NCBI GenBank assembly: GCA_042571405.1 | Contig: JBHPHU010000004.1 | Span: forward strand, 1 to 62,240 | Source: Candidatus Omnitrophota bacterium | GTDB lineage: Bacteria > Omnitrophota > Gorgyraeia > Gorgyraeales > Gorgyraeaceae | Reading direction: 5' to 3' | Length of the DNA: 62,240 nt | In this document: positions 38,838 to 62,240 of the stretch, one piece after another | Layout of the letters: every line of letters starts with the position of its first letter | How positions within the stretch are numbered: position 1 is the stretch's first letter | Position numbers and translations under genes: made by a program | The notes under the pieces: generated by a model | The model's database searches: none | The model's input: only the letters and a program-made list of their open reading frames with translations | Told to the model about the DNA's origin: nothing

Positions 38838-40357
38838 AGCTCATCCAGTTTCCTTTGAACTTCTTTGTTATCGTTAAGCTGGAGTGATTTCTGCCAGGCC
38901 TCCTTGGCCTGATCAAACGCGCCTGTCTTAAAACACGCGTCTCCCAGATGATCATATACTACAGGATCATCACCTATCAGCTCTATTGCTCTCTCAAGTT
39001 CCAACCTCGCCTCCTCGAACAACCCTCTCTTATAATAAACCCATCCCAGACTGTCTGCATAAGCGCCGTTATTCGGACTCATGGAGAGCGCCTTTCTTAC
39101 AAAACGGTCTGCCTTGTCAAGGTTAATGCCTTCCTCAGCGTATATGTATCCAAGATAATTCAACACCTCAGGATCATCGGAACTGAGCTCCAGCGATCTC
39201 TCCAGCTGCAAAAGAGCGTCTTTTCGATAACCCGCATCTTCAAGCATTGCCCCCAGATAAAAATGAGACTTTGGGTTAAAAGGGTCTGCTTCTATGCTTT
39301 TTTTGTACGCCTCTATCGCAAAGTTCTTGTCGCCTTTTTCACTGTGACAAAATCCCAAGGCAAGATAGATATCTTCTGTTCTTTCCTCAAGAAGAAGCGC
39401 TTCTTTCAAAAGTCCTATGGCGTCATCTATCCTGGAATCCGCAACATAGATATAACTAAGCTCTATATACGCGACAACGTCCTCAGGGTCAAATTTCAGC
39501 AAGAGTTTATACTGGCGTATGGCCTCTTTTACGTTGTCCATCTGAAAATAGAGCTGACCCAGCTGGCGATATAGCTTTGTATTTACGGGATCGAGTTTTA
39601 TGGACTCCTGATAATGCTTTATCGCTCCCTCTATGTTATTATTTATTTCGAAGAGTACTGCCAGAGCTAAATGAGCCTCCAGGTAATCTGGTTTCAGCTT
39701 TATTGCTTTTTTAAATTCTTTCGCCGCGGCCTTAATCCGCGTTGCTCTTGTATACACTACTCCCAGATTAAAATGGATCAGCGGCGAATCTTTTCTTTCC
39801 CCCACGAGTTCCTCGTAGATCTTTATAGCCCTGTCCAAGTCCTGGCCAAGTATATACATATCTGCCAGAGATGTAAGAATAGCAAGGTCCTTTGGGTCGC
39901 TTTTTAAGATCTCTTCGTATTCTTTTGCTGCCTCATCATAATTTTGCTGAGAGGTATAAATAAGAGCGAGCAAGAATCTGGCGCGGCTATTTTTTTTGTC
40001 GAGCTGAGCTGCCTTTTTGAGACTTATAATGGCTTCGTTAGCCTTGCCAAGTTTTACATAAGCTGCGCCTAATCTATAATGCACCGGCGCCGCGTCAGGA
40101 TCGATCTTAACTGCCTTCAGGTATTCTTCTATCGCCTGGGAGACATTGCCTTCATTGTCATAAATCATACCCATAGAATAATGGGCGTATGAACGGGGCG
40201 CTATGGACGGGGCAGCTTCTTTCTCTGCTATCTTCAGAATTTCCTTGCTGGGGCTAAACGCTGTGCGTTTCTTTGCCTTCTGAGTAGACACACATCCTGC
40301 CCCATGCAAAGCCACTATCCCTGCAATCACTAAGATTAATAAATGTCTTGAAGTCAT
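38804..40357 (-). CDS. TPR-repeat lipoprotein
   Basis: Start at MTSRHLLILVIAGIVALHGAGC (lipobox), followed by more than 10 TPR units. Confidence 0.8.
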   Translation of the reverse strand: MTSRHLLILVIAGIVALHGAGCVSTQKAKKRTAFSPSKEILKIAEKEAAPSIAPRSYAHYSMGMIYDNEGNVSQAIEEYLKAVKIDPDAAPVHYRLGAAYVKLGKANEAIISLKKAAQLDKKNSRARFLLALIYTSQQNYDEAAKEYEEILKSDPKDLAILTSLADMYILGQDLDRAIKIYEELVGERKDSPLIHFNLGVVYTRATRIKAAAKEFKKAIKLKPDYLEAHLALAVLFEINNNIEGAIKHYQESIKLDPVNTKLYRQLGQLYFQMDNVKEAIRQYKLLLKFDPEDVVAYIELSYIYVADSRIDDAIGLLKEALLLEERTEDIYLALGFCHSEKGDKNFAIEAYKKSIEADPFNPKSHFYLGAMLEDAGYRKDALLQLERSLELSSDDPEVLNYLGYIYAEEGINLDKADRFVRKALSMSPNNGAYADSLGWVYYKRGLFEEARLELERAIELIGDDPVVYDHLGDACFKTGAFDQAKEAWQKSLQLNDNKEVQRKLDELCQKEELISKN

Positions 40358-40402
40358 GATCACTGTTGTTATAACACAGATTGCCACAGATTAAAAGATA
40401 CA

Positions 40403-47818: not shown

Positions 47819-49021
47819 TTATCCTTTTTGTACCTTTAGAATAACACTGATCGTGGTGCCTTTGCCTTTCTCACTCTGTATCTCAAGTAATCCTTTGTGC
47901 ATATCAATGATGTTTTTTGTTATATATAGACCGAGGCCTGTTCCTTTTTCCTCAGCGCTTGTTCTTTTCGTTGTAAAGAATGGTTCGAATATCTTGCTCA
48001 GGTCTTTCGCGGCAATACCAACACCTGTGTCTTGTATCTCTACGACTACAACCTTTTCTCCGGGTTTTATAAAATCCTCTGTACTGTTATCTACCCCCGG
48101 TTTTGGCGTCGTGAATTGTTTTTGATAACTTCGGATATGAAGTTCTCCGCCCTTTGACATGGCTTGGCGGGCATTTAATAATAAATTAATAAATACCTGC
48201 TCTATCTTTCCTTTATCAATTAAAACTTTTGGCAAATCATCTTTTAATTCCTTAACTATTTTTATATTTTTGGACTTAAATCCATATTCTTTTAAAGTTA
48301 AAGCGGCTTCTAGTATGGAATTTATGTTTTCCAGTTGTAGGCCCACCTCTGACAGCTTGGAGAAGTCAACCAGCGCGCGTACAATACTATCAGCCCTGTG
48401 GACATTCTGCTTAATCAACTGCAGGGTGTCGAAATTAGTCGTTTGCGTTTCAGGGATTTGTTGCTCTAAATAACCGATGCCTTGTAATATTATCCCCAGG
48501 GGATTCTTTATCTCATGCGCTACGCCGCTGGCCATCCTGCCTATTGCCTGCATTTTTTCAGCTTGGATAAGCTGTGATTGGGCTTCTTTAAGCTTAGCAT
48601 ATGCTATTTTCAATTCCCCTTCAACCCGTTCCTTTTCTTTTTTCACATTATGTCTCTCGAGAGCCTTCCTGACAATCAAGGGCAAGGTCTCTTCATACAT
48701 GTCATCTTTCACCACATAATCATACGCCCCTTCTTTCATAATATCTACGGCTATCCTCTCGCTCCCGGCAGAGGTAACCACAATAAAAGGTAAGTCTTTA
48801 CCCTTCTCCTTCATTTTTTTCAATACATCCAAAGCGCTCAAACCAGGCAGCCTGTAGTCACAGAGCACTAGATCATAATCCTTATCGATTATCATCTTTA
48901 GCCCCTCCTGAGGATCCCCTGTAGAATCGATCTGCCAGTCTTTAGAGGCTAATGTTAACACATCTTTAGTAATCAGAACATGATCCAGATTATCTTCGAT
49001 AAGAAATATCTTTATAGACAT
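47819..49021 (-). CDS. receiver-domain histidine kinase (REC-HisKA-HATPase)
   Basis: 400 aa. DLVLCDYRLPG receiver, H-box SGVAHEIKNPL, and N/G boxes. Confidence 0.85.
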   Translation of the reverse strand: MSIKIFLIEDNLDHVLITKDVLTLASKDWQIDSTGDPQEGLKMIIDKDYDLVLCDYRLPGLSALDVLKKMKEKGKDLPFIVVTSAGSERIAVDIMKEGAYDYVVKDDMYEETLPLIVRKALERHNVKKEKERVEGELKIAYAKLKEAQSQLIQAEKMQAIGRMASGVAHEIKNPLGIILQGIGYLEQQIPETQTTNFDTLQLIKQNVHRADSIVRALVDFSKLSEVGLQLENINSILEAALTLKEYGFKSKNIKIVKELKDDLPKVLIDKGKIEQVFINLLLNARQAMSKGGELHIRSYQKQFTTPKPGVDNSTEDFIKPGEKVVVVEIQDTGVGIAAKDLSKIFEPFFTTKRTSAEEKGTGLGLYITKNIIDMHKGLLEIQSEKGKGTTISVILKVQKG

Positions 49022-49030
49022 AAAATACCA

Positions 49031-49492
49031 TTATACCCCACTGCTATTAGATGAATTAATATTCAATAATCCCCAATATAGACCTATCTGCTTTACTACA
49101 GTAACAAATTTTTCAAACTCAACGGGTTTTTGTATATAACTGTTACAACCATAATTATAACCTTTTACTACATCCTCTTCTCTTTTGGAAACAGTCAGCA
49201 GTATTGTAGGTATGCTTTTCAAATCAGGGTTTGTTTTTAATCTCTTCAGGACCTCCAGGCCATTTTTCTTCGGCAGGTTTATATCCAGCAATATCAAACC
49301 CGGCCTGAACGCCACGTTTGGGTCCTGATACTTGCCCTTACGCTCTAAAAAGTCAATTGCCTCACTGCCATCTCTAACCACAAACAAATCATTAACCACC
49401 CCTGCCACTTGCAAAGCCTCTTTGGTTATTTCAATGTGATCAAGGTTGTCTTCTACAAGTAAAATTTTTACAATATTACGCTCCACTGACAT
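49031..49492 (-). CDS. single-domain response regulator
   Basis: 153 aa. ILLVEDN...LILLDINLPKKNG. Confidence 0.85.
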   Translation of the reverse strand: MSVERNIVKILLVEDNLDHIEITKEALQVAGVVNDLFVVRDGSEAIDFLERKGKYQDPNVAFRPGLILLDINLPKKNGLEVLKRLKTNPDLKSIPTILLTVSKREEDVVKGYNYGCNSYIQKPVEFEKFVTVVKQIGLYWGLLNINSSNSSGV

Positions 49493-49494
49493 AA

Positions 49495-51006
49495 TTACCC
49501 CTTTCTGTTCTCAGATTGATCTTTTACGGTAAAATAAAATGTCGTGCCTTCTCCCATCTTGGACTCAACCCATATCTTCCCGCCATTATTCTCTATTATC
49601 TTTTTTACTATGGTAAGGCCCGCGCCTGTTCCTTCGTGGTCTTCTCTTTTGCCTAACCTCTGGAAAATTTTGAACACTTTGTCAAAATACTGCTCCTCTA
49701 TGCCTGAGCCATTATCCTTTACATAAAATTCATAAAAACCGTTTTTTTCTATACACCCTATTTCTACATGAGGCTGCTTCTTATCCGTGAACTTTATAGA
49801 GTTAGAGATCAGGTTAAGAAAAACCTCTGCCAATCTTACGCGGTCACAAGAAAGTCTTGGCAACTTATCCCGGACTATTATGTCGGCCTTCTTTTCATGT
49901 ATCGCGTATTCCAGCCTCATTTTCACCTCATCTATAAGATCACCTATCTCAACTACCTCGACAGGGTTTTTTCTTCTGTCAACGCGGGATATCTCTAAAA
50001 GATCTTCGATGAGATTCTGCATTGTTGAAGCATTCACCCGTATCCGTTCAATATAATGCCTGCCCTTATCATCCAGCTTATCTCCGTAACGCATCTCCAA
50101 AAATTTAGAAAAAGCGTCTACGGTTCTTAATGGCTCCTTTAAATCGTGCGATATTGTATAAGTAAACTCATCTAATTCTTTATAGGCAGCCTCTAGTTTA
50201 CGTCCCTTTAGTTCTGCCGTTTCAACAGCCTGTTTTTCTTTCTGTATGTAGCGGTTTAAATCATCTGACATCTTATTAAACGACTCGGCAAGCTTGCCTA
50301 TCTCATCTCTCGCCCCCACTTTTATCCTATAGGAAAGATCTCCTTTGGATATCTCCTGCGTCCCTTTTAAGAGCCTGTTAATAGGCGCGGACAATGCCTT
50401 GCCCATAAAAAAGGCCGCTAAAAAACAAAAAATTATCCCTATAAATATGCTGAACCACATTATTTTTTGGCTATTTTTTGCAATAATAAGCATATTTATA
50501 TCAGATGCCCTGATCTTAGCCCTGATATCTTTGAACATCCCATCTAATCTATCGCTAGCCGCCTTAGCTGCAGCAATAGCAATATGTTCCATGTCAAAAG
50601 AACTGGCGCCTGATGGATCATATTCAAATTCACTGCTATAAGTACTGATTGCTACTTTAAAAAGCTTGGCAGTCTTTATAAATTCATTCACGGACTCTTT
50701 CTTTTGTGCATCAATGCCGCCTTTCAAATCCATAGATTCTTTAAGTACCTTATTCATGGCCAATATAGCCAAAGAAATATCAATTTCATGGTTTCTAGTA
50801 TAGCTAAAAAAGATATCTTTGGCGTATAAAAAATTATCCCTTATAGAATGCACCTTATCCGAGATAGGTCTTTTATGCACTATCATATCATATAGATTTG
50901 CGATAATCTTGTGCGTGCTTACTAAAGACACGGCGCACACAATGATCATAATTATGATCATTATTAATACAGTTAACCTGCGAATAGACCCGAATGATAA
51001 AAACAT
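49495..51006 (-). CDS. HAMP-domain sensor histidine kinase
   Basis: 503 aa. Two TM helices, HAMP, H-box SHDLKEPL, HATPase. Confidence 0.85.
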   Translation of the reverse strand: MFLSFGSIRRLTVLIMIIIMIIVCAVSLVSTHKIIANLYDMIVHKRPISDKVHSIRDNFLYAKDIFFSYTRNHEIDISLAILAMNKVLKESMDLKGGIDAQKKESVNEFIKTAKLFKVAISTYSSEFEYDPSGASSFDMEHIAIAAAKAASDRLDGMFKDIRAKIRASDINMLIIAKNSQKIMWFSIFIGIIFCFLAAFFMGKALSAPINRLLKGTQEISKGDLSYRIKVGARDEIGKLAESFNKMSDDLNRYIQKEKQAVETAELKGRKLEAAYKELDEFTYTISHDLKEPLRTVDAFSKFLEMRYGDKLDDKGRHYIERIRVNASTMQNLIEDLLEISRVDRRKNPVEVVEIGDLIDEVKMRLEYAIHEKKADIIVRDKLPRLSCDRVRLAEVFLNLISNSIKFTDKKQPHVEIGCIEKNGFYEFYVKDNGSGIEEQYFDKVFKIFQRLGKREDHEGTGAGLTIVKKIIENNGGKIWVESKMGEGTTFYFTVKDQSENRKG

Positions 51007-51023
51007 AATCCACCTGTTACTAT

Positions 51024-51620
51024 TTAACGCAATAATTGTTCGGCCAAAATATCCATATTTATCCCCACTGTCATGGCGCCAATAACATGTTTGGTCTGCG
51101 GATCAATGACAGGTATGGAAGCATGGGCTAAATAGTCTTGTGTGCTGTCATCAAAATAAACTTCGCTTATAAAAATAGCTCCTTTGCCGCCAGCAAAACA
51201 CTTAATAAATTTATCCTCATCCCCCTGCCAATAATCCGTAGTTTTCTTTGTCTCTCCTACGATACAACCCTGTTTATCCATAACAAATATCTCGGAATAA
51301 AGGCCCGCGCCCTTTTCTTCGAATTCCTTTAGGTAATCAGCGCAAGGATTATCAATAAATCCGTTTACCCATTCATCCATGTCTTTTGATCCCTGCCATC
51401 TATTATCTAACTGTATTATCTCTTCCAAAGATTTTTCAGTTTCTATATTAGCCTTTTGTACCGCGTTAACTATTATTGGATTGTTCGCCAAAACTACGAA
51501 TTCTTGCTTTGCCATACGTTTGACAAGGGCCCTTAAAGCATCTTCATTTGCCCAAGCCAGGTTTATCAGTGTTAAAAAAACAACGCCTGCCACGAAAAAA
51601 GATACTATTTTTTTTACCAT
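51024..51620 (-). CDS. secreted Cache/PDC-like sensor-domain protein
   Basis: 198 aa. Signal peptide. The fold assignment is tentative. Confidence 0.5.
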   Translation of the reverse strand: MVKKIVSFFVAGVVFLTLINLAWANEDALRALVKRMAKQEFVVLANNPIIVNAVQKANIETEKSLEEIIQLDNRWQGSKDMDEWVNGFIDNPCADYLKEFEEKGAGLYSEIFVMDKQGCIVGETKKTTDYWQGDEDKFIKCFAGGKGAIFISEVYFDDSTQDYLAHASIPVIDPQTKHVIGAMTVGINMDILAEQLLR

Positions 51621-51623
51621 TTA

Positions 51624-52499
51624 TCATTCCCCCCATTCCAGCGTCAACATCTCACCCACATCCCCTGCGCCATAAAAAGGCTGGGATAACTCAGGATCAT
51701 GCTGTCGAGCCGCCATCTCTTGACTGGATACTCCGAACTGGTAACTTTTACCCGGAACAAATTGGATATCATCCGGATTCCCTGTATTTAGAAAACGGCT
51801 GAACTCCATAGTCCACCTGCCATCAGACCATATGCCTTTTGCCTTGATGTCTGCGCGGCTTCCTGAGGGGGTCCTGTTTTCATAATTCGGGATCTCATCT
51901 CCCTCATACTCTATAAATAGAACATCTTTATAAGCTGTCGTTCCACTATCTCCTAATCTCTCTAAATACATAATGTTGCCGGTCTTAGTGGTCACTTCTA
52001 TTGATTTTGAGCGTTTAGTTTTGCCTAATTTCTGCATCTTATCATCTGCAAAACCTACGGGATCCGTCCTGTTCGCTTTCCAAAACCATATATCCGCCAT
52101 ATAAGATTCGTCAGAATACACGCTTAAATCTACTGGATACGCTTCCATATTCCATTTAAAAATAAACGTATCTTCTCTTAACATCCCAACCTTATACATC
52201 TCTTCATGTTTGTCCCACACCCAATACTTATGTTTCCTTGACTCATCCGGGTCAGGGAATGTAACCAAAAAGAAAATTTCCTTATCAGTATAAGCTGCCT
52301 TCATTGTTATATCAATGCCCGTAATATTATCATGGGTGACTATTGCCTGTGGCTTCTCCCACAGAGGCTCATCTGCATTCCCATCGATTACCGGAGGTAA
52401 GTCTATTTTTTCAGCGATTACGCTTTGGTCCGCATAGGAAATCCCATTTATAACCAAACATGCTAATAGCATCAACGTAAAAATTATTTTCTTTTTCAT
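51624..52499 (-). CDS. secreted DOMON/EB_dh-like (ethylbenzene-dehydrogenase gamma-type, CBM9-like) domain protein
   Basis: 291 aa. Signal peptide; IDGNADEPLWEKPQ...KAAYTDKEIFFLVTFPD pattern. Assigned from memory. Confidence 0.5.
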   Translation of the reverse strand: MKKKIIFTLMLLACLVINGISYADQSVIAEKIDLPPVIDGNADEPLWEKPQAIVTHDNITGIDITMKAAYTDKEIFFLVTFPDPDESRKHKYWVWDKHEEMYKVGMLREDTFIFKWNMEAYPVDLSVYSDESYMADIWFWKANRTDPVGFADDKMQKLGKTKRSKSIEVTTKTGNIMYLERLGDSGTTAYKDVLFIEYEGDEIPNYENRTPSGSRADIKAKGIWSDGRWTMEFSRFLNTGNPDDIQFVPGKSYQFGVSSQEMAARQHDPELSQPFYGAGDVGEMLTLEWGE

Positions 52500-52570
52500 A
52501 ACTTTCTCTCCTTATTGTCAGCATAAAAACCAAAGATCAAACTTAGTTCTCCCAACAGCTTTTTTAAATA

Positions 52571-52960
52571 CTAATTGTTTTCCTGTTTCGGCTGCAAAGC
52601 CTTTTCTATTTTGACGATAAGCCCTTCTTGATCCATCGGCTTCGCGAGATAACCTACTACTCCTTTTTTATAGGCCCTGTTCTTATCTTCATCTCGATCT
52701 AACGCGGAAAATATAATAATAGGGATGGTTTTGCCAAAAGGATCTTGATTTAACATATCGCAAACCTCGATGCCTCCTATCCCGGGCATAACAAGGTCCA
52801 GAAGTATCACATCCGGCCTAAAACTGCCGACTTTGGATAAAATCTCTTTTGGATCCGACAGGGTCAAAACTTCATACTTGCCTGTCCTTTCTAAATTCAA
52901 TTTTACTATTGTAAGAAAATCCAGTTCGTCGTCAACAACCAATATCTTTTTCTTAGACAT
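52571..52960 (-). CDS. single-domain response regulator
   Basis: 129 aa. ILVVDDE...VILLDLVMPG. Confidence 0.85.
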   Translation of the reverse strand: MSKKKILVVDDELDFLTIVKLNLERTGKYEVLTLSDPKEILSKVGSFRPDVILLDLVMPGIGGIEVCDMLNQDPFGKTIPIIIFSALDRDEDKNRAYKKGVVGYLAKPMDQEGLIVKIEKALQPKQENN

Positions 52961-53057
52961 TTAACCCCTCTTTAGATCTTTAAAGCAATAATAAAGCATA
53001 CCATATCAAGCTATAAATACAAGGGGAGGCGAGTCATGGAGAAAAATTTTAAAAAAT

Positions 53058-54644
53058 CTATCTCTTGGGCGAAAGAACTTTTTCTAACTTAGCGACAAGG
53101 GCATTTATTTCTATAGGCTTTATAAGATAATCTTTTACTCCTGCCCTATACGCCCTGTCCTTATCTATATCGTTATCTACTGCGGAAAGTATAATAATAG
53201 GGATGGATTTGCCGAGTGGGTCGTTGCTTAGCTTCTCGCAACAATCATGCCCGCCTACTATCGGCATAAGTATATCCAATAATATCACATCCGGCTTAAA
53301 CCTATTCACCTCTGAGATAATATCCTTTGCGCTTGGCAAAATTAACACCTGATAGTCGTGTATGGTTTCCAAATTTAACTTTGCAATCTTGAGAAAATCT
53401 ACCTCATCATCAACTATCATCACTTTTGTCTTTATGTCGCCTGCGGCTTGAGGTATTCTCAGAGCTATAATAAACCTCGTGCCCTTACCAACCTCGCTTT
53501 CTACATCAATAAATCCCTTATGCATAGCGATTATCTTCTTAGTAACCGACAATCCTAAACCACTTTGTTTGCCGGGTCCTTTCGTACTAAAGAACGGGTC
53601 AAAGATCTTCTTCAGGTTTTCTGCGGTAATACCTGAGCCTGTGTCTTCTATTTCTACGACTACGACCTTTCCCCTAGCCCCAAAATAATCCCTTGTTCTC
53701 TCATATGCCTCATCTTCTAAGCTGTCCAGTTGCTTTACATAACTGCGGATAGACAGTGTTCCCTGGCCTGGCATAGCATGAATTGCGTTCAGAAATATAT
53801 TCACAAAGACTTGTTCCATTTTCCCTTTGTCCACTAAAACCTCTGGCAAATTTTTTTGGAGATCTGTAATGATTTCTATCTTCCCTTTATGGGGCCTATG
53901 GCAGATTAAAGCTGATGAAGCTTCTATTATTGAATTGATATCTTGTTTACGGATTTCCAACTTTGTTTCTCTAGAAAAATCTACGAGAGAGCGCGTAATC
54001 TTGTCGGCTCTGTGGACATTGCTCTTCATCATATTGAAAACTTCGCGGATATCTTTCTTTGAAGATAATTTGCTCTCTAAATAGTTGACATCCTGGATCA
54101 ATATTCCTAACAGATTCTTGACTTCATGAGCTACATCACTGGCCAACTGTCCTACAACAGAAAGTTTTTCGGCCTGGACAAGCTGCTCGTAAGTCTCCAG
54201 CAGTGTAGTTTGAGCTTTTTCCAATTTTTCTTCCGCTATCCTGCGCCTGTTAATGTCTTTTATGACCCCTATGGTTCCTAAAAATCTTTTCTCTTCCCCG
54301 GTAGATTTTTCCCACTTTGCAGAAAAATGCAGCTCAGTATAGTGATAAGCCGCTGAAACGCTTCCCTGATTGTTTATTACCAGCTTCATCTCAAGACACT
54401 TAGGCGCTCCTTCAAAAACCGATTTCTCCTTTTTATCTTTTAGAAGACCATAATACCCAATGCTTTCACGGTCGTCTGGATGCACTATCTCCCCAAAATG
54501 CTTCCCGATAAGTTCCTGTGGATTATAGCCCAATTCTCTTATGGCATCACTGACGAAAGTGAATCTTCCGTTAGGATCAAATTCATATATTATATCCGGA
54601 ATTATTTTGGTAAGAATTTTATACTTTTCTTCATTTTGCTTCAC
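53058..54644 (-). CDS. hybrid sensor kinase (PAS-HisKA-HATPase-REC)
   Basis: 528 aa. H-box SDVAHEVKNLL. C-terminal receiver VMIVDDE...VILLDILMP. Confidence 0.85.
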   Translation of the reverse strand: MKQNEEKYKILTKIIPDIIYEFDPNGRFTFVSDAIRELGYNPQELIGKHFGEIVHPDDRESIGYYGLLKDKKEKSVFEGAPKCLEMKLVINNQGSVSAAYHYTELHFSAKWEKSTGEEKRFLGTIGVIKDINRRRIAEEKLEKAQTTLLETYEQLVQAEKLSVVGQLASDVAHEVKNLLGILIQDVNYLESKLSSKKDIREVFNMMKSNVHRADKITRSLVDFSRETKLEIRKQDINSIIEASSALICHRPHKGKIEIITDLQKNLPEVLVDKGKMEQVFVNIFLNAIHAMPGQGTLSIRSYVKQLDSLEDEAYERTRDYFGARGKVVVVEIEDTGSGITAENLKKIFDPFFSTKGPGKQSGLGLSVTKKIIAMHKGFIDVESEVGKGTRFIIALRIPQAAGDIKTKVMIVDDEVDFLKIAKLNLETIHDYQVLILPSAKDIISEVNRFKPDVILLDILMPIVGGHDCCEKLSNDPLGKSIPIIILSAVDNDIDKDRAYRAGVKDYLIKPIEINALVAKLEKVLSPKR

Positions 54645-54662: not shown

Positions 54663-55409
54663 TTATACACTTATATTGGTTCTTTTACTGAAACGATATT
54701 GTGAAGGAGTAAGATTTGTGACCCTCTTAAATATCTTCATAAAAGACGCCGGGTTCCTATACCCTGCTCTATAGGCAATCTGTGTAATGTTAAAATTAGT
54801 CTTTTCTAACATGTCTTTGGCAATTTCTATTTTTAATTCTATCTTATACCTGGCAAAGCCTTTGCCTGTTTTCTTCTTAAATACCCTGCTTAAATATTTA
54901 GGGCTTAAAAACAGCTCTTTGGAAACATCTCTTAAGGTCAATGGTTTATTACAATTCCTTCTAATGAATCTTTGAGCCCATATAACCTTGCCTTCTCTAT
55001 TATCAATGCCTGATTTATCAAAATCCCTTTGCTCGCCTAGAAATCTCTCGAATATCTCCCTGATCTTTCTGACATCAAACGGTTTTTCGACATATTCGTC
55101 CGCGTCCGAACGCAGCGCTTCGACTACTATATCCTTAGAACTATACCCCGTGAGAAGAATGACTTTATGTTTTGGATTTATCTTCTTTATCTCTTTTATC
55201 AGCTCGATCCCTGTTAAACCAGGCATCATCATGTCTACTACTATAAGATCTATATCATGAGGATGACTTAAAATATTCAACGCCTCTTGGCCATCCGCAG
55301 CAAGCACTATTCTGTATTCATCATCAAAACTATGGATAAAACTATCCCTGACTCTCTTATCATCATCCACTACTAAAATTTTTTCCTTAAAAACTTTTTC
55401 GTTTGTCAT
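54663..55409 (-). CDS. response regulator with AraC-type HTH output
   Basis: Start at MTNEKVFKEKILVVDDD. The C-terminal domain has the dual AraC HTH (ITQIAYRAGYRNPASFMKIFKRVTNLTPSQYR). Confidence 0.85.
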   Translation of the reverse strand: MTNEKVFKEKILVVDDDKRVRDSFIHSFDDEYRIVLAADGQEALNILSHPHDIDLIVVDMMMPGLTGIELIKEIKKINPKHKVILLTGYSSKDIVVEALRSDADEYVEKPFDVRKIREIFERFLGEQRDFDKSGIDNREGKVIWAQRFIRRNCNKPLTLRDVSKELFLSPKYLSRVFKKKTGKGFARYKIELKIEIAKDMLEKTNFNITQIAYRAGYRNPASFMKIFKRVTNLTPSQYRFSKRTNISV

Positions 55410-55465
55410 ATGTGTTAAGTATAAGAATAAAGCAAAAAAGGTCAATCGGCAAAATACACTTTCTG

Positions 55466-57235
55466 CTATCCTTTTTCCACCTCTAAGGGCAATTTCATGA
55501 CAACAGTAGTTCCTTTGCCTACTTGGCTTTCCAGTATGATGGTTCCGCCATGCTGCTCAATAATACTGCGGCTTATAGCAAGTCCCAATCCCATGCCGCC
55601 TTTTTCAATAGCATAAAACGACTCAAATATTTTCTCTAACGCGTCAGATGGTATGCCCTTCCCGGTATCTATAATCCTCACCTCTGCGCTGGTAGAGTTT
55701 GAGGACAACAAAATTACAATCGAACCTCCGGCCGGCATTGCATTAATAGCATTGATAATTACATTCATAAAAACCTGTTTTAATTTTTGAGGATCATGTC
55801 TGATATAAAGATTATCTGTCTGCGGACTATATCTAACATTAATTCTTTTTTCAATCAATCGCTCGCTCATTGTCTCCAATATGCCGCTTATTAATTCTTT
55901 CAGATCTATCTTTTCCATCAGCAGCGCGGAATTAGAAGAAAAATTGGATATCCCCTTGAGCATATGTTCCCAACGCTCGATCTCTTCCGGCATCAACTTA
56001 CTAAATCTATCTATGAATTCTCTGTCTTTATGTTTTTGCGGAAATAGCTGAACAAATGTTTTTATCGAAACTAGCGAATTCTTTAGCTCATGAGTTATCC
56101 AGCTGGCTGCTTCTCCGATTGCTGAAAGCTGCTCACGCGATTTTGCCTTTTTTAATCTTTCGCTCATATTATTAAAGGATCTGACCAGCCCTCCGATCTC
56201 ATCGCGTCTCTTTATCTCAATCTTATGGCCAAAATCACCCTCAGCCACTCTCTTTATTCTGGACGCCAGGGTCTTTATAGGCATAATCAATAACTTGGCC
56301 ATGAATATGCTTACCGCGATAGCTATTAATTCACTTAAAATTATGATCATCCACGATTGCATTTTCATTACCTTGGAAAATAAATAGGCTTCGTCCTGTT
56401 CTTGTCTCAGGACAAAACCCCATCCTAAATGTGAAACAGGCGCATAAGAAACGATCCACCTTTTTCCTGTTTTCTCCAGTGACTCAATCGACCCTGCCTG
56501 ATTCTTTAAAACTGACTGGATATACGGCAGGTGGTTAAGATCCTCGTTCTTCAAGACCCGCTTCTTATCCTGATGGGCTATCAATATGCCGTTATTTGAG
56601 ACTAAAAATGCCCTGCCGGTCGCTTCTATCTGTATATTATCTATAATGCCCCATATTCCTCTTAAATTAATGTCACCTATTAATGCGCCCACTACCTTGC
56701 CCATCTTTCTGATTGGTACGGCCATGGTTAGATAAGGCGTATGGTTATTTAAAATCATGACATTAGAAGCATAATCCTGGCCTTTGTTTATCTTTTCCAA
56801 TGCCTCTTTGAGATGAGGCCAGCTTGATTTCCTGCCCAATTCAGAACTGGCCAGTTCTCCGCCCAATAGATCTATCGAAGACACCCGCATAAAAACCGGG
56901 CGATTCAAGACCAGCTCTACCAGTACTGTTTCCTGCTTCCATGGCGCGGGATACACCACTTCAAGCATAGCCGCGGTAGTCTTCAATATGCCCTCGGGCC
57001 CTTTGATAAAGAGTTTTATCTCTTCTGCCGCCCTTACAGCTATCTCTTTATGATTATTCAATACTGAATTCCTTACAGCCTCCTGAGAGGTGCTTATTAA
57101 TAAAAATCCAAGAAGGACTACGGGAACAGTGACAAGCAGAAGAAGCATAGCCGCGATCTTTACCCATAGTCTGCGGTAAAATAAACGCAGCAAAAAAATT
57201 TTTATTTTAGACAATTTACGCATTACTCTATTCAT
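55466..57235 (-). CDS. sensor histidine kinase (periplasmic Cache-like domain, HAMP, HisKA, HATPase)
   Basis: 589 aa. ATGA overlap with the ABC exporter stop. H-box SWITHELKNSL. Confidence 0.85.
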   Translation of the reverse strand: MNRVMRKLSKIKIFLLRLFYRRLWVKIAAMLLLLVTVPVVLLGFLLISTSQEAVRNSVLNNHKEIAVRAAEEIKLFIKGPEGILKTTAAMLEVVYPAPWKQETVLVELVLNRPVFMRVSSIDLLGGELASSELGRKSSWPHLKEALEKINKGQDYASNVMILNNHTPYLTMAVPIRKMGKVVGALIGDINLRGIWGIIDNIQIEATGRAFLVSNNGILIAHQDKKRVLKNEDLNHLPYIQSVLKNQAGSIESLEKTGKRWIVSYAPVSHLGWGFVLRQEQDEAYLFSKVMKMQSWMIIILSELIAIAVSIFMAKLLIMPIKTLASRIKRVAEGDFGHKIEIKRRDEIGGLVRSFNNMSERLKKAKSREQLSAIGEAASWITHELKNSLVSIKTFVQLFPQKHKDREFIDRFSKLMPEEIERWEHMLKGISNFSSNSALLMEKIDLKELISGILETMSERLIEKRINVRYSPQTDNLYIRHDPQKLKQVFMNVIINAINAMPAGGSIVILLSSNSTSAEVRIIDTGKGIPSDALEKIFESFYAIEKGGMGLGLAISRSIIEQHGGTIILESQVGKGTTVVMKLPLEVEKG

Positions 57236-58935
57236 ATCCTCTGATAATTTTCTTTTTTATCCAAAAGCTCAGCAGGCTTTATGGTCTTTCTTATTTTGTT
57301 ATCTTCGACAAACATTATCTTATCCGCATAATCTATAGCGGCTAACCTGTGAGAAATAATGAAAGTAGTGCGGCCGGACATTAAATTCCTGAAGGCGCGT
57401 TCAATAATCAAACGCTCTGTCTCTGAATCTACGCTGGAGGTTGCCTCATCCAGTATCAAGATATCCGGGTCCCTTAATATCGCCCTGGCAATAGAGATCC
57501 TTTGTCTTTGGCCATAAGATAACTTGATCCCGCGTTCCCCTATCTCAGAATCATAGCCGCCCGCAAGGCATATGATAAACTCATGCGCCGCGGCTAATTT
57601 AGCCACATCTATAATATCCTGCATAGAGGCATCTGGTTTACCATAAAGAATATTCTCTTTTATGGTCCCGCTAAATAAATAATCGTCCTGCAGGACTATG
57701 CCTATTTTAGAACGATACGATTCCAATTCCAGATCTTTAAGATTATGCCCGTCTATAAATATTGCTCCTTTTGTAGGTTCATAAAACCGTAAAAGTAAAT
57801 TTATCAAGGTAGTTTTACCGGCTCCGCTTTTACCTGCTATAGCGACTATTTCTGATCCTTTTACATCAAAATCAACATCAGAAAGAATTTCTTTGCCGCC
57901 ATCGTAACTAAAACTGACATTTCTAAAACTTATATTACCCTTTACTGTATCAAGGAAAACAGGCCGCGAGGATTGTTTTATCTGTGGTTCTTCGACCAAT
58001 ATGCCTCTGATGCGCTCCATAGAAGCGGCTGCCTCCTGATAATAACTATTGATGATAACCATTTTGATAATAGGAAAAAATAACATGCCCAGATAGGAAT
58101 AAAAAGCCATCAATGTACCTGTAGTGATGCGCCCTGAAAAAACCGCGTTTACCCCGAACCAGACAAGCGTAATCAGGCCTAATGAACTTATAAATTCAGA
58201 GAACATCCACAGCATTATCTCCAGGCTATGACTCCCCATAGAAAGCTTGAATATCTCTTTCTGCTTAAAGTTGAATTTATCGCTTTCATGCGCTTCCCTG
58301 CTAAACCCGGCAACAACGCGTATCCCTCTGAATACCTCATTTAATCTTGTAGTAAGTTCTGCGTATCTTTCCCGGACTGCCATATGTCTTTCTTTAAGTT
58401 TTGGCGTAAGCTTAAAAAATGTTACGCCGAAAATAGGCAGATATACAATAGATAACAGCGTGAGCCTCCAATCCAAAGCAAATAAAATACAAAGGACAAA
58501 AATGATATTTAAAAAAGAGTAGATAAAATCAATGGCGCCTCCGAATAAAAACTGTCTTATACTGTCCGTATCTCCGATAATCCCGGATATCATCTTTCCC
58601 GTAGAGGTATCTTCTATATACTTAACGGATAATCTCTGTAAATGCGCATAGATCTTTCTACGCAAATCATATACTACCTTTTCACCGACAAAAGACGCCA
58701 TATACTCACGCATGTATCCAAAATACGACTTCAGGATAAACACAAGGACAAGACCTATTGTAATTATATTAAGTAAGTATATGTCTTTTTTTACTACTAT
58801 ATCATCTATTACTATCTTTATCACCCATGGAAAGGCCAACCCAAGCAGATTGGCCATTAAGATAGCTATAAAGGCAAAGGATATTTTTCTCTTATAAGGC
58901 TTTAAAAGATACAAAAACTCTTTTAGGTTTGTCAA
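57232..58935 (-). CDS. ABC exporter, fused permease/ATPase (MsbA-like)
   Basis: 567 aa. Six-TM domain, Walker A GKSGAGKTT, signature LSYGQRQR, Walker B ILILDEA. TTG start with an AAGGAG RBS; TTGA overlap with the rSAM stop. Confidence 0.9.
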   Translation of the reverse strand: MTNLKEFLYLLKPYKRKISFAFIAILMANLLGLAFPWVIKIVIDDIVVKKDIYLLNIITIGLVLVFILKSYFGYMREYMASFVGEKVVYDLRRKIYAHLQRLSVKYIEDTSTGKMISGIIGDTDSIRQFLFGGAIDFIYSFLNIIFVLCILFALDWRLTLLSIVYLPIFGVTFFKLTPKLKERHMAVRERYAELTTRLNEVFRGIRVVAGFSREAHESDKFNFKQKEIFKLSMGSHSLEIMLWMFSEFISSLGLITLVWFGVNAVFSGRITTGTLMAFYSYLGMLFFPIIKMVIINSYYQEAAASMERIRGILVEEPQIKQSSRPVFLDTVKGNISFRNVSFSYDGGKEILSDVDFDVKGSEIVAIAGKSGAGKTTLINLLLRFYEPTKGAIFIDGHNLKDLELESYRSKIGIVLQDDYLFSGTIKENILYGKPDASMQDIIDVAKLAAAHEFIICLAGGYDSEIGERGIKLSYGQRQRISIARAILRDPDILILDEATSSVDSETERLIIERAFRNLMSGRTTFIISHRLAAIDYADKIMFVEDNKIRKTIKPAELLDKKENYQRI

Positions 58936-60272
58936 GCTACAGGCTCCTTTGCTTGTCGAGTCTTGTCGTATTCCAGTTTGATCAGCTCAGGCATAACATT
59001 TTCAAAATAATCTTTTTTACATGATAGATCTTCAAAATTTTTGTTTTCCAGGTATGAAAAAAACCTGCATCCTCCCTGGCACATCGGGACATACGGGCAA
59101 TCCTTGGGGCATTTATCCCAGGCATTGATATTCAAGAATTTTTCGAAATTTTCATTCAATTCGTCTCTCCGCACATTGCCTATGGAAAACTCGGGATACC
59201 CCAATAAAGAATTACATTTATAGATTACGCCTTCAGGATCAATGGTTATGCCTCCGTCCTCCATAATCAAAGGGCACGCATTGATGGCCAGGCCCGTATT
59301 GATATTGATCCCGCGCTTGATCAAATCCTTTTTAATAGCGACTGTTTCGTTGAATAATCCGTCTTTTTCAACAAAACTCAGGCATTCGCCAAGTTCAATC
59401 GCGCCGGGATTATCCTTTGAGCCTAATCTAGGTACTATAGGCGAAAAATCAATTCTCGATAGCCTGTAAAGAAGATCTTCTTTTTCTAAATAATCCAGAA
59501 GTCTTGGAATGCTGTCTAAATTGTCCCGGTCAAAATTTCCTGCAAGGCCTACCTCTGTCTTATTAATTATACTCTTGATATTATTGATAATAACATCAAA
59601 GCTCGGCTTTCCATCCGCAAATGGCCTTTTTTTATCATGTTCATCTTTGCACCCATCAATGGTGACACGGACACCTTTTAAGCCAACTGTTAAAAACTTG
59701 TCTATCAGGTCCGCGTTTAAAAGACTCCCGTTAGTAATAATCGAGAAGTGAAATTCTGACCCGCTTTTCTCTGCCCATTTCTTCATGTGCCACGAGATAT
59801 CATAAATGGGGACAATGTTCAATAACGGCTCGCCGCCGTAATAGACTAAATGAATCCGTTTTATGCCTCTTTTCTCAGCCCTGTTGATCAACCATTTAAC
59901 TATTAAACTACTTGTATCTTTATCCAAAAATATACTATCCCTGACTGATTCCTCAAAACAATACACGCACCTAAAATTACAACTATAGGTGGTCAGGATC
60001 GTTGTCTCAAGGCTTAAGCCCTGAGTCTCATTCTTGAGTTGTCTAAAAAAATCCTTTAATTTAGCCTCTTCCTCATTATCATCTTCTACAATAATTCCGT
60101 TTTCTTTCAAGGCATTGAGATTTTCTCTAACCTGAGGGCCTGAAATATTATCTAATTCCTGCTTGAACTCTCTGCTTACCTTTATAAGCGCCTGCGTACG
60201 CGCATTAAAAAGCAAATAGTCTCCCTTATCTGGATAGTCCTCTACCCATACATTAAATCTGGATAATTTCAT
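58932..60272 (-). CDS. radical SAM/SPASM-domain peptide-modifying enzyme
   Basis: 446 aa. CNFRCVYC (CX3CX2C) and a C-terminal auxiliary cluster region CNSLLGYPEFSIG...CPKDCPYVPMCQGGCRF...C. A roughly 90-aa N-terminal extension precedes the rSAM core. Confidence 0.85.
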   Translation of the reverse strand: MKLSRFNVWVEDYPDKGDYLLFNARTQALIKVSREFKQELDNISGPQVRENLNALKENGIIVEDDNEEEAKLKDFFRQLKNETQGLSLETTILTTYSCNFRCVYCFEESVRDSIFLDKDTSSLIVKWLINRAEKRGIKRIHLVYYGGEPLLNIVPIYDISWHMKKWAEKSGSEFHFSIITNGSLLNADLIDKFLTVGLKGVRVTIDGCKDEHDKKRPFADGKPSFDVIINNIKSIINKTEVGLAGNFDRDNLDSIPRLLDYLEKEDLLYRLSRIDFSPIVPRLGSKDNPGAIELGECLSFVEKDGLFNETVAIKKDLIKRGININTGLAINACPLIMEDGGITIDPEGVIYKCNSLLGYPEFSIGNVRRDELNENFEKFLNINAWDKCPKDCPYVPMCQGGCRFFSYLENKNFEDLSCKKDYFENVMPELIKLEYDKTRQAKEPVA

Positions 60273-60360
60273 AATTATTCCTTTTTATTTGCAGCAGCTC
60301 TGGTCGGCCGCCCAGAGCATTTACTGCAAAATCTAGTCCATCAAACTTGTTAATTGGTTT

Positions 60361-60456
60361 CTACTGTACTCTAAGACCATTGCTCCCTGGAGGCCAACAG
60401 CAGTTACGCGGACTTATCTTAGATAGGTTATCTGAGCCCTTTTTTATAATCTCCAT
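60361..60456 (-). CDS. 31-aa candidate RiPP precursor peptide MEIIKKGSDNLSKISPRNCCWPPGSNGLRVQ
   Basis: Absent from the ORF track (<60 aa). The ATG lies 7 nt after a perfect AGGAGG (60469-60464) and 4 nt after the SBP stop, directly upstream of the rSAM/SPASM gene. Confidence 0.6.
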   Translation of the reverse strand: MEIIKKGSDNLSKISPRNCCWPPGSNGLRVQ

Positions 60457-60460
60457 TTTA

Positions 60461-62044
60461 TCACCTCCTTTCTATGTGCCAATCTTTCATTGTATAATAA
60501 GGCATATTAACATTAAAAAATTCATCCACATTCTCAAACCTATTAGAAGCTGCTTGAAAATAAAAAGGAAAATATAAAAAACATGCTGGTTGATCTCCAT
60601 AAATCAATTCATGAATCTCTTCGTAAAACTCTTGCCTCTTCTCTTTATCTTGGCTAACTTCTCCTAAATCAACCAACCTGTCTATTTCTTCGTTCTTATA
60701 CGTCCATAATTTATTAGCAATTCCTTTAGACCTCTTAGAGCACCAAGGTTCGACTGTTTGATCAGGGTCCATTCCAGCTAGAAATAACATTAACTGTGCC
60801 TGGAGTTTGTTCTGTTCTAAAAATTCACTAGTTAGTACGTCCTCGTGATCGTAAGAAACTACTCTAATTTTTATGCCAATGTTCTGAAGCTCCTGTCTAA
60901 TAGCTAAGATTATCCTGTTATAAATATCGCTTCTTGAATCGACTAATACTCTTATCTCTAATTCCTTTCCTTGTTTTTCTAAGATCCCGTCATTGTCTAT
61001 ATCATACCAGCCTGCCTGATCCAATAATTCTAAAGACTTTTCAGGATTATATTCAAATGTTTTAACGTCAGGATTAAACCCTATTGAATTTGAAGAAAAA
61101 GGACCGTTGCATTCTAACCCATAACCAAAAGCCGCTTTTTTAATAAGCTCTTTTCTATCTATGCCATATGCGATTGCCTGTCTTATGTTTTTATCAGCTA
61201 AAATAGGGTCACTCATGTTATATGAGATAGCATAATAACAATCAATGGGAAAGGCATGCGACTTAAACGAAGGGTCATCCTTTATTATCTCATAATCCTC
61301 TCTTTCAATAAGCTCAACATAATCTACCTCACCGCGCATAAAAGCAATCCATGCGTCACGAGAATTAGAATATGCCCTGATAATAACCTTATCCAGATAC
61401 GGCCTTCCCTCATAATAATCAGGATTATACTCCAGGGTGATCATGTTATCTTCATCCCATTGCTTAAACCTGAAAGGGCCTGTGCCAATAGGATAATGAT
61501 TAAAATCAGCTTTATCTAAATCTGTTTGTTCTAATATATGCCTGGGCATTACATATCTAAGCATTCTATAGAGAAAGGGTACTGATGATTTGTTAAGCAC
61601 GACTTTAAAAGTATATCTATCCACTACTTCAAATCTCTCTACTATCTGATACTGTAACTTAAAAGGAGAATTAACTTTGGGATCGATGATCTTATCGTAC
61701 GTAAATTTCACATCCTCTGCCGTACACTCTACTCCATCGTGAAACTTTATACCTTGTCTAAGATAAAATGTATAGACTAAGCCGCTCTTGGATATGTCCC
61801 AACGCTCCGCAAGATCCGGCTCTATCTCACCTGTTGAGTTTAGTCTCACAAGTCCGTTAAAAATTATCTGCACAAGTGACGCTGAAACACTGTAAGAAGT
61901 AAGAATAGGATTTATTATGGTAGGCTTATTACGCGTACCCCAGTTCAGAGTTCCGCCATAAGACTTTGTGGCAGGAGAAACAGCTTCAGCCTCCGGAACA
62001 ACAAAAGGTAACATAATTGAGAATACAAATAGTAATATTCGCAC
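60461..62044 (-). CDS. family-5 (Opp/Dpp-type) solute-binding protein, no cognate permease in the operon
   Basis: 527 aa. Signal peptide (GTG start) and SBP_bac_5-like sequence throughout. Confidence 0.85.
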   Translation of the reverse strand: MRILLFVFSIMLPFVVPEAEAVSPATKSYGGTLNWGTRNKPTIINPILTSYSVSASLVQIIFNGLVRLNSTGEIEPDLAERWDISKSGLVYTFYLRQGIKFHDGVECTAEDVKFTYDKIIDPKVNSPFKLQYQIVERFEVVDRYTFKVVLNKSSVPFLYRMLRYVMPRHILEQTDLDKADFNHYPIGTGPFRFKQWDEDNMITLEYNPDYYEGRPYLDKVIIRAYSNSRDAWIAFMRGEVDYVELIEREDYEIIKDDPSFKSHAFPIDCYYAISYNMSDPILADKNIRQAIAYGIDRKELIKKAAFGYGLECNGPFSSNSIGFNPDVKTFEYNPEKSLELLDQAGWYDIDNDGILEKQGKELEIRVLVDSRSDIYNRIILAIRQELQNIGIKIRVVSYDHEDVLTSEFLEQNKLQAQLMLFLAGMDPDQTVEPWCSKRSKGIANKLWTYKNEEIDRLVDLGEVSQDKEKRQEFYEEIHELIYGDQPACFLYFPFYFQAASNRFENVDEFFNVNMPYYTMKDWHIERR

Positions 62045-62062
62045 CTGTCACCTATTAAAATA

Positions 62063-62078
62063 AGCAACTTTTATGCCA
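62063..62078 (-). promoter_or_regulatory. sigma54-type promoter TGGCAT-N5-TTGCT
   Basis: The minus strand reads TGGCATAAAAGTTGCT with exact GG-N10-GC spacing. The -12 GC lies 20 nt upstream of the SBP start codon. Confidence 0.6.
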
Positions 62079-62170
62079 AAGCCAGAAATTCGTGTAAGAT
62101 TCGCGCCAATTACCGTCGAGAGAAATATTTTATAAATCGCAAGTAAGGTTTAGAGCTTGCCTAAGATTTA

Positions 62171-62206
62171 TGCACAAAAATATGGGCATATTGGTTTTAT
62201 TGTGCA
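62171..62206. promoter_or_regulatory. candidate enhancer (UAS): TGCACAA-N22-TTGTGCA, about 95-130 bp upstream of the sigma54 promoter
   Basis: 7-bp perfect inverted arms with a nested atatg-ggc-catat. The same half-site occurs upstream of glnA copy 1. Confidence 0.35.
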
Positions 62207-62240
62207 ATATTATATTACCAGTCACAGGTAAGCCCGGCCT

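Follow-up and report, generated by a model that had tools for sequence, protein, structure and literature searches.

Contig JBHPHU010000004.1 of a Candidatus Omnitrophota bacterium (GCA_042571405.1; the window analysed here is the whole contig, 62,240 nt) ends within a cassette that encodes a short peptide with a Cys-Cys pair, a radical SAM/SPASM maturase, an ABC exporter, a TonB-dependent receptor, a periplasmic solute-binding protein and a two-component system. This cassette, eight to nine genes in size, is real, widely conserved and so far unannotated in uncultivated Omnitrophota. What is observed comprises its gene content, a conserved peptide, the architecture of the enzyme, a sigma54 promoter preceded by an upstream site, and the fact that promoter and activator occur together. 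We favour, with a probability of roughly 0.55, the reading that the modified peptide is exported, recaptured and sensed, so inducing its own operon, and we lean slightly towards such a signalling role over metal capture. More tentatively, and short of even odds, we propose that the whole represents an undescribed circuit in which a radical SAM-modified Cys-Cys peptide is exported, re-imported through TonB, read by a periplasmic binding protein and kinase and answered by sigma54 output, either as a TonB-gated pheromone or as an oxygen-independent counterpart of methanobactin.

The comparison covers 26 loci from a scan of species-representative genomes and two more from contig look-ups (related loci are numbered with the prefix L). 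Relatives of the maturase number in the hundreds at 52–78% identity, and the named ones are nearly all from Candidatus Omnitrophota metagenome-assembled genomes (MAGs). In the window, six open reading frames (ORFs) had been proposed on the minus strand by a first-pass annotation made from the sequence alone, and each lies at the coordinates claimed for it. The operon had been taken to begin at the sigma54 promoter in isolation; this is corrected here, as the tail of a receptor gene lies upstream and more genes lie downstream of 54663. The cassette is larger than was claimed, adding the TonB-dependent receptor and, in ten loci, an NtrC-type activator. The features of the window are as follows.

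62215–62240, minus strand: 3′ end of the TonB-dependent receptor gene (…AGLTCDW and stop, frame-2 translation), cut by the contig end
62171–62206, minus strand: upstream activator site TGCACA-N18-(TGCCCA)-N7-TGTGCA, from motif conservation among loci
62063–62078, minus strand: sigma54 (-24/-12) promoter TGGCATAAAAGTTGCT, from consensus and conservation
60461–62044, minus strand: secreted family-5 solute-binding protein, 527 aa (PF00496, E=1e-88)
60361–60456, minus strand: precursor peptide gene MEIIKKGSDNLSKISPRNCCWPPGSNGLRVQ, 31 aa, with an orthologous ORF in 26/26 loci
60288–60330, minus strand: stem-loop with loop GCGGCCGA between the precursor and maturase genes, from folding and alignment
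58932–60272, minus strand: maturase with a predicted RiPP recognition element (RRE; RiPP, ribosomally made, post-translationally modified peptide), radical SAM and SPASM domains, 446 aa (TIGR04280, 310.8 bits)
57232–58935, minus strand: ABC half-transporter exporter (transmembrane and nucleotide-binding domains, no peptidase domain; PF00664, PF00005)
55466–57235, minus strand: dCache-HAMP-HisKA-HATPase sensor histidine kinase (Pfam scan)
54663–55445, minus strand: REC-AraC response regulator (Pfam), start possibly at 55409
52571–54644, minus strand: PAS-kinase-REC hybrid and single REC protein, accessory rather than core

The precursor gene is the best supported of the short elements. An orthologous ORF of 27–36 aa lies directly before the radical SAM gene in all 26 loci that hold this region, a conservation that places the 31-aa ORF of the window far beyond chance. 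The peptides follow the consensus ME[IV]I[RK]KGSD-x(5-10)-CC[FWY]PxG[ST]xGxR, and a strong AGGAGGTGA-type ribosome-binding site is found at each of the 23 precursor ORFs examined. In the window the ORF starts 4 nt past the stop of the binding-protein gene (TGA-TAAA-ATG) and is preceded by AAGGAGGTGA. Each of the invariant residues (Gly, Cys, Cys, Pro, Gly and Arg) is encoded by two to four synonymous codons, indicating selection on the protein rather than on the DNA. Judged by this comparison of sequences, the 31-aa ORF is a real gene under purifying selection, and its earlier designation as the precursor holds, as orthologues keep the short ORF beside the enzyme gene. None of the NCBIfam models matched the clade peptides (n=23) at E≤10, TIGR04229 (cut-off 30 bits) included, and the exact sequences of seven clade peptides were all missing (0/7) from a collection of 15 billion predicted proteins, indicating that the precursor gene generally goes unannotated. 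The related peptides of L027, L028 and L032 reach about 16 bits on TIGR04229, and in one relative, L033, a 36-aa precursor gene has been called.

In clades whose enzymes are just 35% identical, 11–13 residues consistently separate the leader Gly from the Cys-Cys pair. All clades have a common design, consisting of a short hydrophobic strand, G-x-[DQ], 11–13 residues, Cys-Cys and a clade-specific tail, and the Cys-Cys pair is the sole core feature that is invariant throughout the superfamily. The peptides of L010, L013, L021 and L022 carry the distinct tail …VRNCCFP[VL]GT[LM]T[FL]R… and form an apparent sub-clade; these four loci come from MAGs labelled Planctomycetia or Deltaproteobacteria, and their receptor gene is relocated downstream of the kinase gene.

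The enzyme encoded next is a radical SAM/SPASM protein, as had been proposed. The cysteines of its CxxxCxxC motif (C98, C102 and C105; PF04055, E=2e-15) are invariant in 30 orthologues, as are C333, C353, C388, C392, C398, C402 and C418, and the SPASM model TIGR04085 scores 52.6 bits against a cut-off of 27 (residues 300–446); a Pfam scan at E≤0.01 returned just Radical_SAM and Fer4_12, with no SPASM family. Among families, TIGR04280 (‘geopeptide radical SAM maturase’) matches best and aligns end to end at 310.8 bits against a curated cut-off of 400 (six other clade members, 281–306 bits). The next matches are all maturases of Cys-rich peptides, namely CefB, TIGR04463, Clo7bot, PapB and SCIFF, and QhpD-type maturases are detectable relatives (102 bits). 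By sequence, the best solved relative is CteB (5WGG; 84 bits, ~21% identity).

The N-terminal extension of this enzyme had been noted to have the size of an RRE. In an AlphaFold2 model (AF2; predicted local distance difference test score, pLDDT, 86), the N-terminal domain is predicted with pLDDT of about 94 to consist of three strands (residues 7–11, 19–23 and 29–32) and three helices (residues 34–42, 46–50 and 52–57), consistent with the topology of an RRE, a PqqD-like winged helix. Foldseek places CteB first, over its full length including the N-terminal RRE (E=1.7e-20 over 460 columns), followed by TigE, an anaerobic sulfatase-maturating enzyme (anSME), ChlB and SuiB. An anSME identity was considered and rejected: TIGR03942 gives 84.8 bits against a cut-off of 349, the anSME structure matches at 37 bits over the radical SAM core only, whereas the maturase has a predicted RRE, and no sulfatase occurs among the cassette neighbours. 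The enzyme groups with the peptide maturases, and the conserved ORF and the enzyme families together support the RiPP-type order of precursor, RRE-radical SAM-SPASM maturase and exporter that had been read from the window. By homology to thioether-forming enzymes, the maturase may perform thioether chemistry of the sactipeptide/ranthipeptide kind, in which a Cys sulfur is joined to the C-alpha (sactipeptides) or the C-beta/gamma (ranthipeptides) of a second residue.

A transport and sensing module accompanies the peptide and its enzyme. The MsbA/HlyB-like exporter (PF00664, residues 20–288; PF00005, residues 351–500) is encoded directly after the maturase in 26/26 loci, and the kinase, linked in every locus, follows the exporter wherever the locus reaches that far, also in the distant clades L030–L032. 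In the window, the maturase and exporter genes overlap at TTGA and the exporter and kinase genes at ATGA; the regulator gene has a TTG start 20 nt past the kinase stop, and an ATG at 55409 is an equally plausible start. Orthologues of the REC-AraC regulator occur in about 10 loci, while a REC-LuxR regulator takes its place in six others.

The contig ends 196 nt upstream of the binding-protein gene, and its last 26 nt (62240–62215, minus strand) encode AGLTCDW and a stop, matching the receptor C-terminal consensus RYFEGG[LFIV][ST]x.W and stop of 20 loci; this indicates that the receptor gene is present in the genome and truncated by the contig end. The receptors of related loci have a plug plus a barrel, are about 620 aa long and BtuB-like, and lack a signalling extension. 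They occur in 21 of 21 loci with enough flank among the first 26, the other five being cut off earlier, and also in L030–L034. The receptor gene lies directly upstream of the binding-protein gene or, in four loci, downstream of the kinase gene instead.

The N-terminus of the binding protein reads by eye as a signal peptide, and orthologues are present in every locus holding the region upstream of the peptide gene. Its best PDB relatives are CcNikZ-II (8EFZ), AppA (1XOC) and CjNikZ (4OET), of which CcNikZ-II and CjNikZ bind nickel and AppA binds peptide. The NikZ type is defined by a GHHG C-terminal double-His prong (bioRxiv 10.1101/2022.10.03.510666). Direct nickel binding was rejected for the binding protein, as HH does not occur in the window protein, nor at the C-terminal position in 17 orthologues. 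The window genes scanned with Pfam include no permease or ATPase of an ABC importer, and none is linked in any related locus; a second binding-protein/permease operon in the window was also rejected, the other 527-aa ORF (38804–40387) being a TPR protein with transketolase subunits as neighbours. The earlier description of an orphan binding protein stands as far as permease and ATPase partners are concerned and fails in that the protein is always paired with a TonB-dependent receptor, here hidden by the contig end.

The lack of a linked importer and the always-linked kinase fit a sensing role for the binding protein, by analogy with LuxP–LuxQ and AioX–AioS–AioR. In both of these systems a transporter-less periplasmic binding protein stands beside a kinase with a double-PAS/Cache periplasmic domain, and the AioXSR output runs through an NtrC-type activator on a sigma54 promoter. 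Both respond to small-molecule cues rather than to self-made peptides, and neither includes a TonB-dependent receptor, a precursor or a maturase.

The peptide and the enzyme are accompanied by receptor, binding protein, exporter and kinase even where gene order or exporter type changes; this module is seen in Omnitrophota, in MAGs labelled Deltaproteobacteria and in one Margulisiibacteriota genome. It is kept in distant clades, whose enzymes are about 35–40% identical: the exporter is a two-gene ABC type in an Omnitrophota locus and an ABC-2 type in a Margulisiibacteriota locus, and the third distant locus, L032, has ExbB-ExbD-TonB genes adjacent to the cassette. The peptides of these distant clades read MQLEIIVEGAQ…GCCGF…, MKIIKKGVQKGYSIRSACCWPVYQWTFPY and MNLEIITQGAQNGSQLEELGCCWSAAGNF.

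The sigma54 promoter proposed in the first-pass annotation is borne out by its conserved position, its upstream site and its co-occurrence with an activator. The pattern TGGCAT-N5-TTGCT at 62063–62078, which fits the consensus GG-N10-GC with TGGCAC/TTGCW flanks, is expected 0.17 times in the whole window, and TGGCA[CT]-N5-TTGCT lies 31–112 nt upstream of the binding-protein start in 13 related loci and in the window. In ten loci, a gene for an NtrC-type activator (REC, sigma54-interaction AAA+ and Fis-type helix-turn-helix domains) precedes the receptor gene. The promoter is present in 10/10 loci with the adjacent activator versus 0/7 loci with a known upstream region and no activator (Fisher's test on the first 10-versus-5 split, p=3e-4), a co-occurrence indicating that the promoter is served by the NtrC-type protein of related loci rather than by the AraC-type regulator of the operon, as far as comparison of the loci can tell. 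In the source genome, the remainder of the receptor gene lies on another contig, as probably does the activator gene. In 12/13 loci and in the window, TGCAC/GTGCA motifs cluster at 90–220 nt upstream of the promoter, the majority between -90 and -150, against an expected number of 0.03–0.34 per region; they are absent from 4/5 promoter-less loci. A typical upstream site reads TGCACA-N13-15-TGCACA-N6-7-TGTGCA, and that of the window (62171–62206) immediately follows the receptor stop codon. By these comparative criteria, the promoter is functional.

Two further motifs were noted. L031 (Margulisiibacteriota) carries, within 5075–5225, a TGCACA-N6-TGTGCA palindrome upstream of the binding-protein gene, and its -12 element is TTAC, not TTGC. 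A second perfect sigma54 consensus in the window, TGGCACAATAGTTGCA at 34185–34200 (minus strand), lies inside an ORF (33987–35243, nucleotidyl-transferase/hexapeptide protein) and is therefore treated as a probable chance match.

Between the precursor and maturase genes, the window contains a hairpin of -24 kcal/mol (z=-4.5). A hairpin can be seen by eye in all 24 intergenic regions printed, and the eight that were folded give -20 to -28 kcal/mol with z-scores of -3 to -7. A CGGCCG-type loop is present in 17/18 aligned regions (the palindromic GCGGCCGA in 11), the stems covary, and the outer stem is near-identical among loci (CTTGCAG…CTGCAAG); other loci have unrelated hairpins at the same place. 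Geopeptide loci carry a terminator-like hairpin followed by a T-run, and distant loci also have a hairpin here. Rfam returned no match on 60200–62240. The hairpin may act in partial termination or mRNA stabilisation, keeping precursor transcripts above enzyme transcripts; a simple terminator role does not explain the strong conservation of the loop sequence. The pseudo-ORFs ‘GGRPG / WAADQ / GRPT’ between the peptide and enzyme genes were rejected as coding sequences because they are one DNA motif, that of the hairpin, read in three frames in different loci. In L002 (~1300–1420) and L017 (~6780–6810), the spacers are expanded after the hairpin by short tandem repeats, such as TCTGACATCTGACATCTGACATC and CAGTTGACAGTTGACAG.

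The core peptide had been considered unplaceable in any named class. Our comparison identifies it as a divergent relative of the NCBI in-silico ‘geopeptide’ family, a hypothetical equivalog system of the precursor TIGR04229 and the maturase TIGR04280; no experimental paper on geopeptide, TIGR04280 or TIGR04229 was found in the literature searched, and nothing on this system came up in searches that combined radical SAM and RiPP with TonB, binding protein and sigma54. Two NCBI-named geopeptide maturases, found via their source names, score 574 and 587 bits on TIGR04280, and none of 20 cluster representatives reaches 400 bits. Geopeptide loci comprise a kinase and a PF04392 binding protein, divergent from a TonB-dependent receptor, a 39–42-aa peptide (MEREKREEMEREIVILDAGIDMEELTGPNLFCCRGAVSPIRG and MNEEKKENTKGIVVLDEGIDMDAVVCLICCGAGLIPLRS) and the maturase, with the TonB-dependent receptor gene directly beside the peptide gene. 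Both systems have maturases of the same length and architecture that align end to end, peptides with a short hydrophobic strand, G-x-D/Q, 11–13 residues, Cys-Cys and a short tail, a receptor, binding protein and kinase in the neighbourhood, and a hairpin after the precursor gene. Differences occur in the peptide tail (CC[FWY]PxG[ST]xGxR in the clade, CC(R/G)GA..P.R in geopeptides) and in the binding protein, which is SBP_bac_5 in the clade and PF04392 in geopeptide loci. In addition, the clade has an ABC exporter, a dCache kinase and sigma54/NtrC control, and its maturases and peptides fall below the curated score cut-offs. By sequence comparison, the cassette is a sister variant of the geopeptide family, not a member by curated scores, and because of the common design we call it ‘geopeptide-like’.

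Among characterized systems, CteB/thermocellin (SCIFF-type) is closest in the enzyme, CteB being the best solved relative by sequence and by fold and acting on a Cys-containing substrate. The clade precursor has two vicinal Cys, as compared with six Cys in the CteB precursor, and to our knowledge CteB loci have no receptor, binding-protein or kinase module. The second Cys of the clade peptides is five residues from a conserved Thr/Ser, presumably comparable to the thermocellin link, which we take to be Cys32–Thr37. Streptide-type operons, which are linked to cell-cell signalling, have the same order of precursor, radical SAM/SPASM enzyme and exporter; they differ in Rgg/SHP control, Lys-Trp C-C chemistry, a Gram-positive host and the absence of an outer-membrane step, and their maturase SuiB is a weaker structural match to the clade enzyme than CteB, TigE, anSME or ChlB.

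From these features we infer the chemistry, the route of the peptide and its role as the sensed ligand. Transcription from the sigma54 promoter would run from the binding-protein gene through those for precursor, maturase, exporter and kinase to the regulator gene. The leader MEIIKKGSD would be held by the RRE domain, which places the Cys-Cys pair, ~12 residues on, in the radical SAM/SPASM active site, where the enzyme may link one or both Cys sulfurs to a nearby residue to give a thioether macrocycle. The ABC half-transporter would export the product from the cytoplasm with no leader protease dedicated to it, and the TonB-dependent receptor would return it over the outer membrane. In the periplasm, the binding protein may capture the product and present it to the dCache domain of the kinase. 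The kinase would then phosphorylate the NtrC-type activator, which would bind the TGCACA sites and fire the sigma54 promoter, resulting in positive feedback; the AraC- or LuxR-type regulator may be a further phosphorylation target of the kinase and would act on other genes.

Several observations weigh against this loop. The peptides are 42–65% identical, about as conserved as the cassette proteins, and evolve no faster, unlike known peptide quorum-sensing pheromones, which are hypervariable. The cassette encodes neither an outer-membrane export route nor a leader protease, and TonB-dependent receptors that serve a signal instead of a nutrient are not known to us. Because the contig ends, the window lacks the activator and the larger part of the receptor gene. 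A short distance, about 20 nt, separates the -12 element from the GTG start. The autoinduction circuit suggested in the first-pass annotation agrees with the loop that we favour, but the layout of methanobactin operons, and with it a metallophore role, matches the cassette equally well.

Methanobactin operons (MbnA, MbnBC, MbnT, MbnE, MbnM, MbnIR) encode a short Cys precursor, a modifying enzyme, the TonB-dependent MbnT, the OppA/AppA-like MbnE and the inner-membrane exporter MbnM, and the parts of the cassette map onto them one to one; for methanobactin, likewise, neither the importer of the inner membrane nor the route of export through the outer membrane is established (PMC7558416). In layout only, the cassette resembles these operons in its Cys precursor, TonB-dependent importer, OppA-like binding protein without permease, exporter and dedicated regulator. 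By this comparison, the product would be a metallophore, an anaerobe's counterpart of methanobactin, whose Cys-Cys peptide binds Cu, Ni, Co or Zn and returns by the receptor to the family-5 protein, the kinase reporting just the arrival of the loaded carrier and an oxygen-independent radical SAM enzyme replacing the oxygen-dependent MbnBC. We regard this as a strong rival of the loop, though on balance less likely. The superfamily-wide invariance of the Cys-Cys pair and the conservation of the peptide, which is not hypervariable, argue for it, as does nickel binding by two of the three closest solved binding proteins; against the latter, the GHHG nickel prong is missing from the binding protein of the cassette. 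An anaerobic life in settings poor in available metals, probable for the hosts, also speaks for metal capture. Thioether formation, if the enzyme performs it, would however consume the thiols, and the second output regulator, of AraC or LuxR type, suits signalling better. Furthermore, no metal-responsive repressor, metal enzyme or other metal-related gene recurs beside the cassette among the neighbours of related loci. The machinery also differs: the only modifying enzyme of the cassette is the radical SAM/SPASM protein, with no counterpart of the MbnB/MbnC iron enzyme and all genes belonging to other families, its exporter is of ABC rather than MATE type, and control is by a two-component system and sigma54 instead of an extracytoplasmic function (ECF) sigma factor.

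The receptor, binding protein and kinase might instead sense a foreign cue, such as a nutrient or a host or prey molecule, the peptide being an inducible output, for example an antimicrobial, and the ABC exporter doubling as self-protection. Many radical SAM-modified Cys peptides, the sactipeptides, are antimicrobial. A Bacteroides radical SAM RiPP cluster also carries a TonB-dependent transporter, the role of which is not defined (PMC11002830). This explanation is improbable in our judgement: the genes for uptake and sensing remain linked to those for peptide and enzyme from phylum to phylum, although the family of the binding protein varies (SBP_bac_5 or PF04392), and the simplest explanation of such linkage is that the peptide is the ligand of the uptake and sensing proteins. 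Moreover, the cassette contains no immunity gene, and the binding-protein gene lies in the induced operon, directly before the precursor gene. Least probable is that, as with QhpC of quinohemoprotein amine dehydrogenase, which is exported by an ABC exporter of the qhp operon, the cross-linked peptide is exported to the periplasm only, where the binding protein would hold it as a lasting partner or cofactor and bind a receptor-imported ligand; the exporter without an outer-membrane partner, the detectable relation to QhpD-type maturases and the 4-nt distance between the binding-protein and precursor genes suit this, but the QhpD relation is weaker than that to the peptide-maturase families, no enzyme partner is encoded, and the binding protein of geopeptide loci is of a different family, its gene running divergently from that of the peptide.

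Downstream of the regulator gene, the PAS-kinase-REC hybrid gene starts 18 nt past the regulator stop with a G-rich ribosome-binding site, and the hybrid and the REC protein are probably co-transcribed with the cassette as accessory genes; L024 alone has an orthologue of the hybrid kinase in the corresponding place (55% identity), and in L003 one sits elsewhere. They open a tight run of signal-transduction genes directly downstream (47819–54644, minus strand), in the order PAS-kinase-REC, REC, a secreted EB_dh (ethylbenzene-dehydrogenase-like) domain protein (51624–52499), a small periplasmic Cache-like protein (51024–51620), HAMP kinase, REC and REC-kinase, and only for the first of these does one related locus (L024) have an orthologue in this position. 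Two unrelated loci carry genes of thiamine biosynthesis on the flanks of the cassette, possibly by coincidence: Thi4 in L001 (46–759), and TMP-TENI, ThiS, a ThiH-like radical SAM protein and ThiG in L032 (12765–15413).

Since the outer membrane is not freely crossed by peptides, signalling by them is considered rare in double-membraned bacteria. If the favoured reading is true, a cassette that gives a modified peptide a TonB-dependent importer, a binding protein and a kinase of its own would show how this barrier can be overcome. The cassette is compact, its promoter logic can be read, and the regulatory wiring is unusually complete and spread over several uncultivated phyla, and since all parts are defined, the idea is directly testable in a heterologous host, though the source organisms are uncultivated. 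The cassette gives the experimentally unstudied geopeptide family a concrete context and exposes a family of genes of about 30 aa. If its product is a signal, this would be the first TonB-gated peptide pheromone pathway; if it is a metal carrier, it would be an anaerobic analogue of methanobactin.

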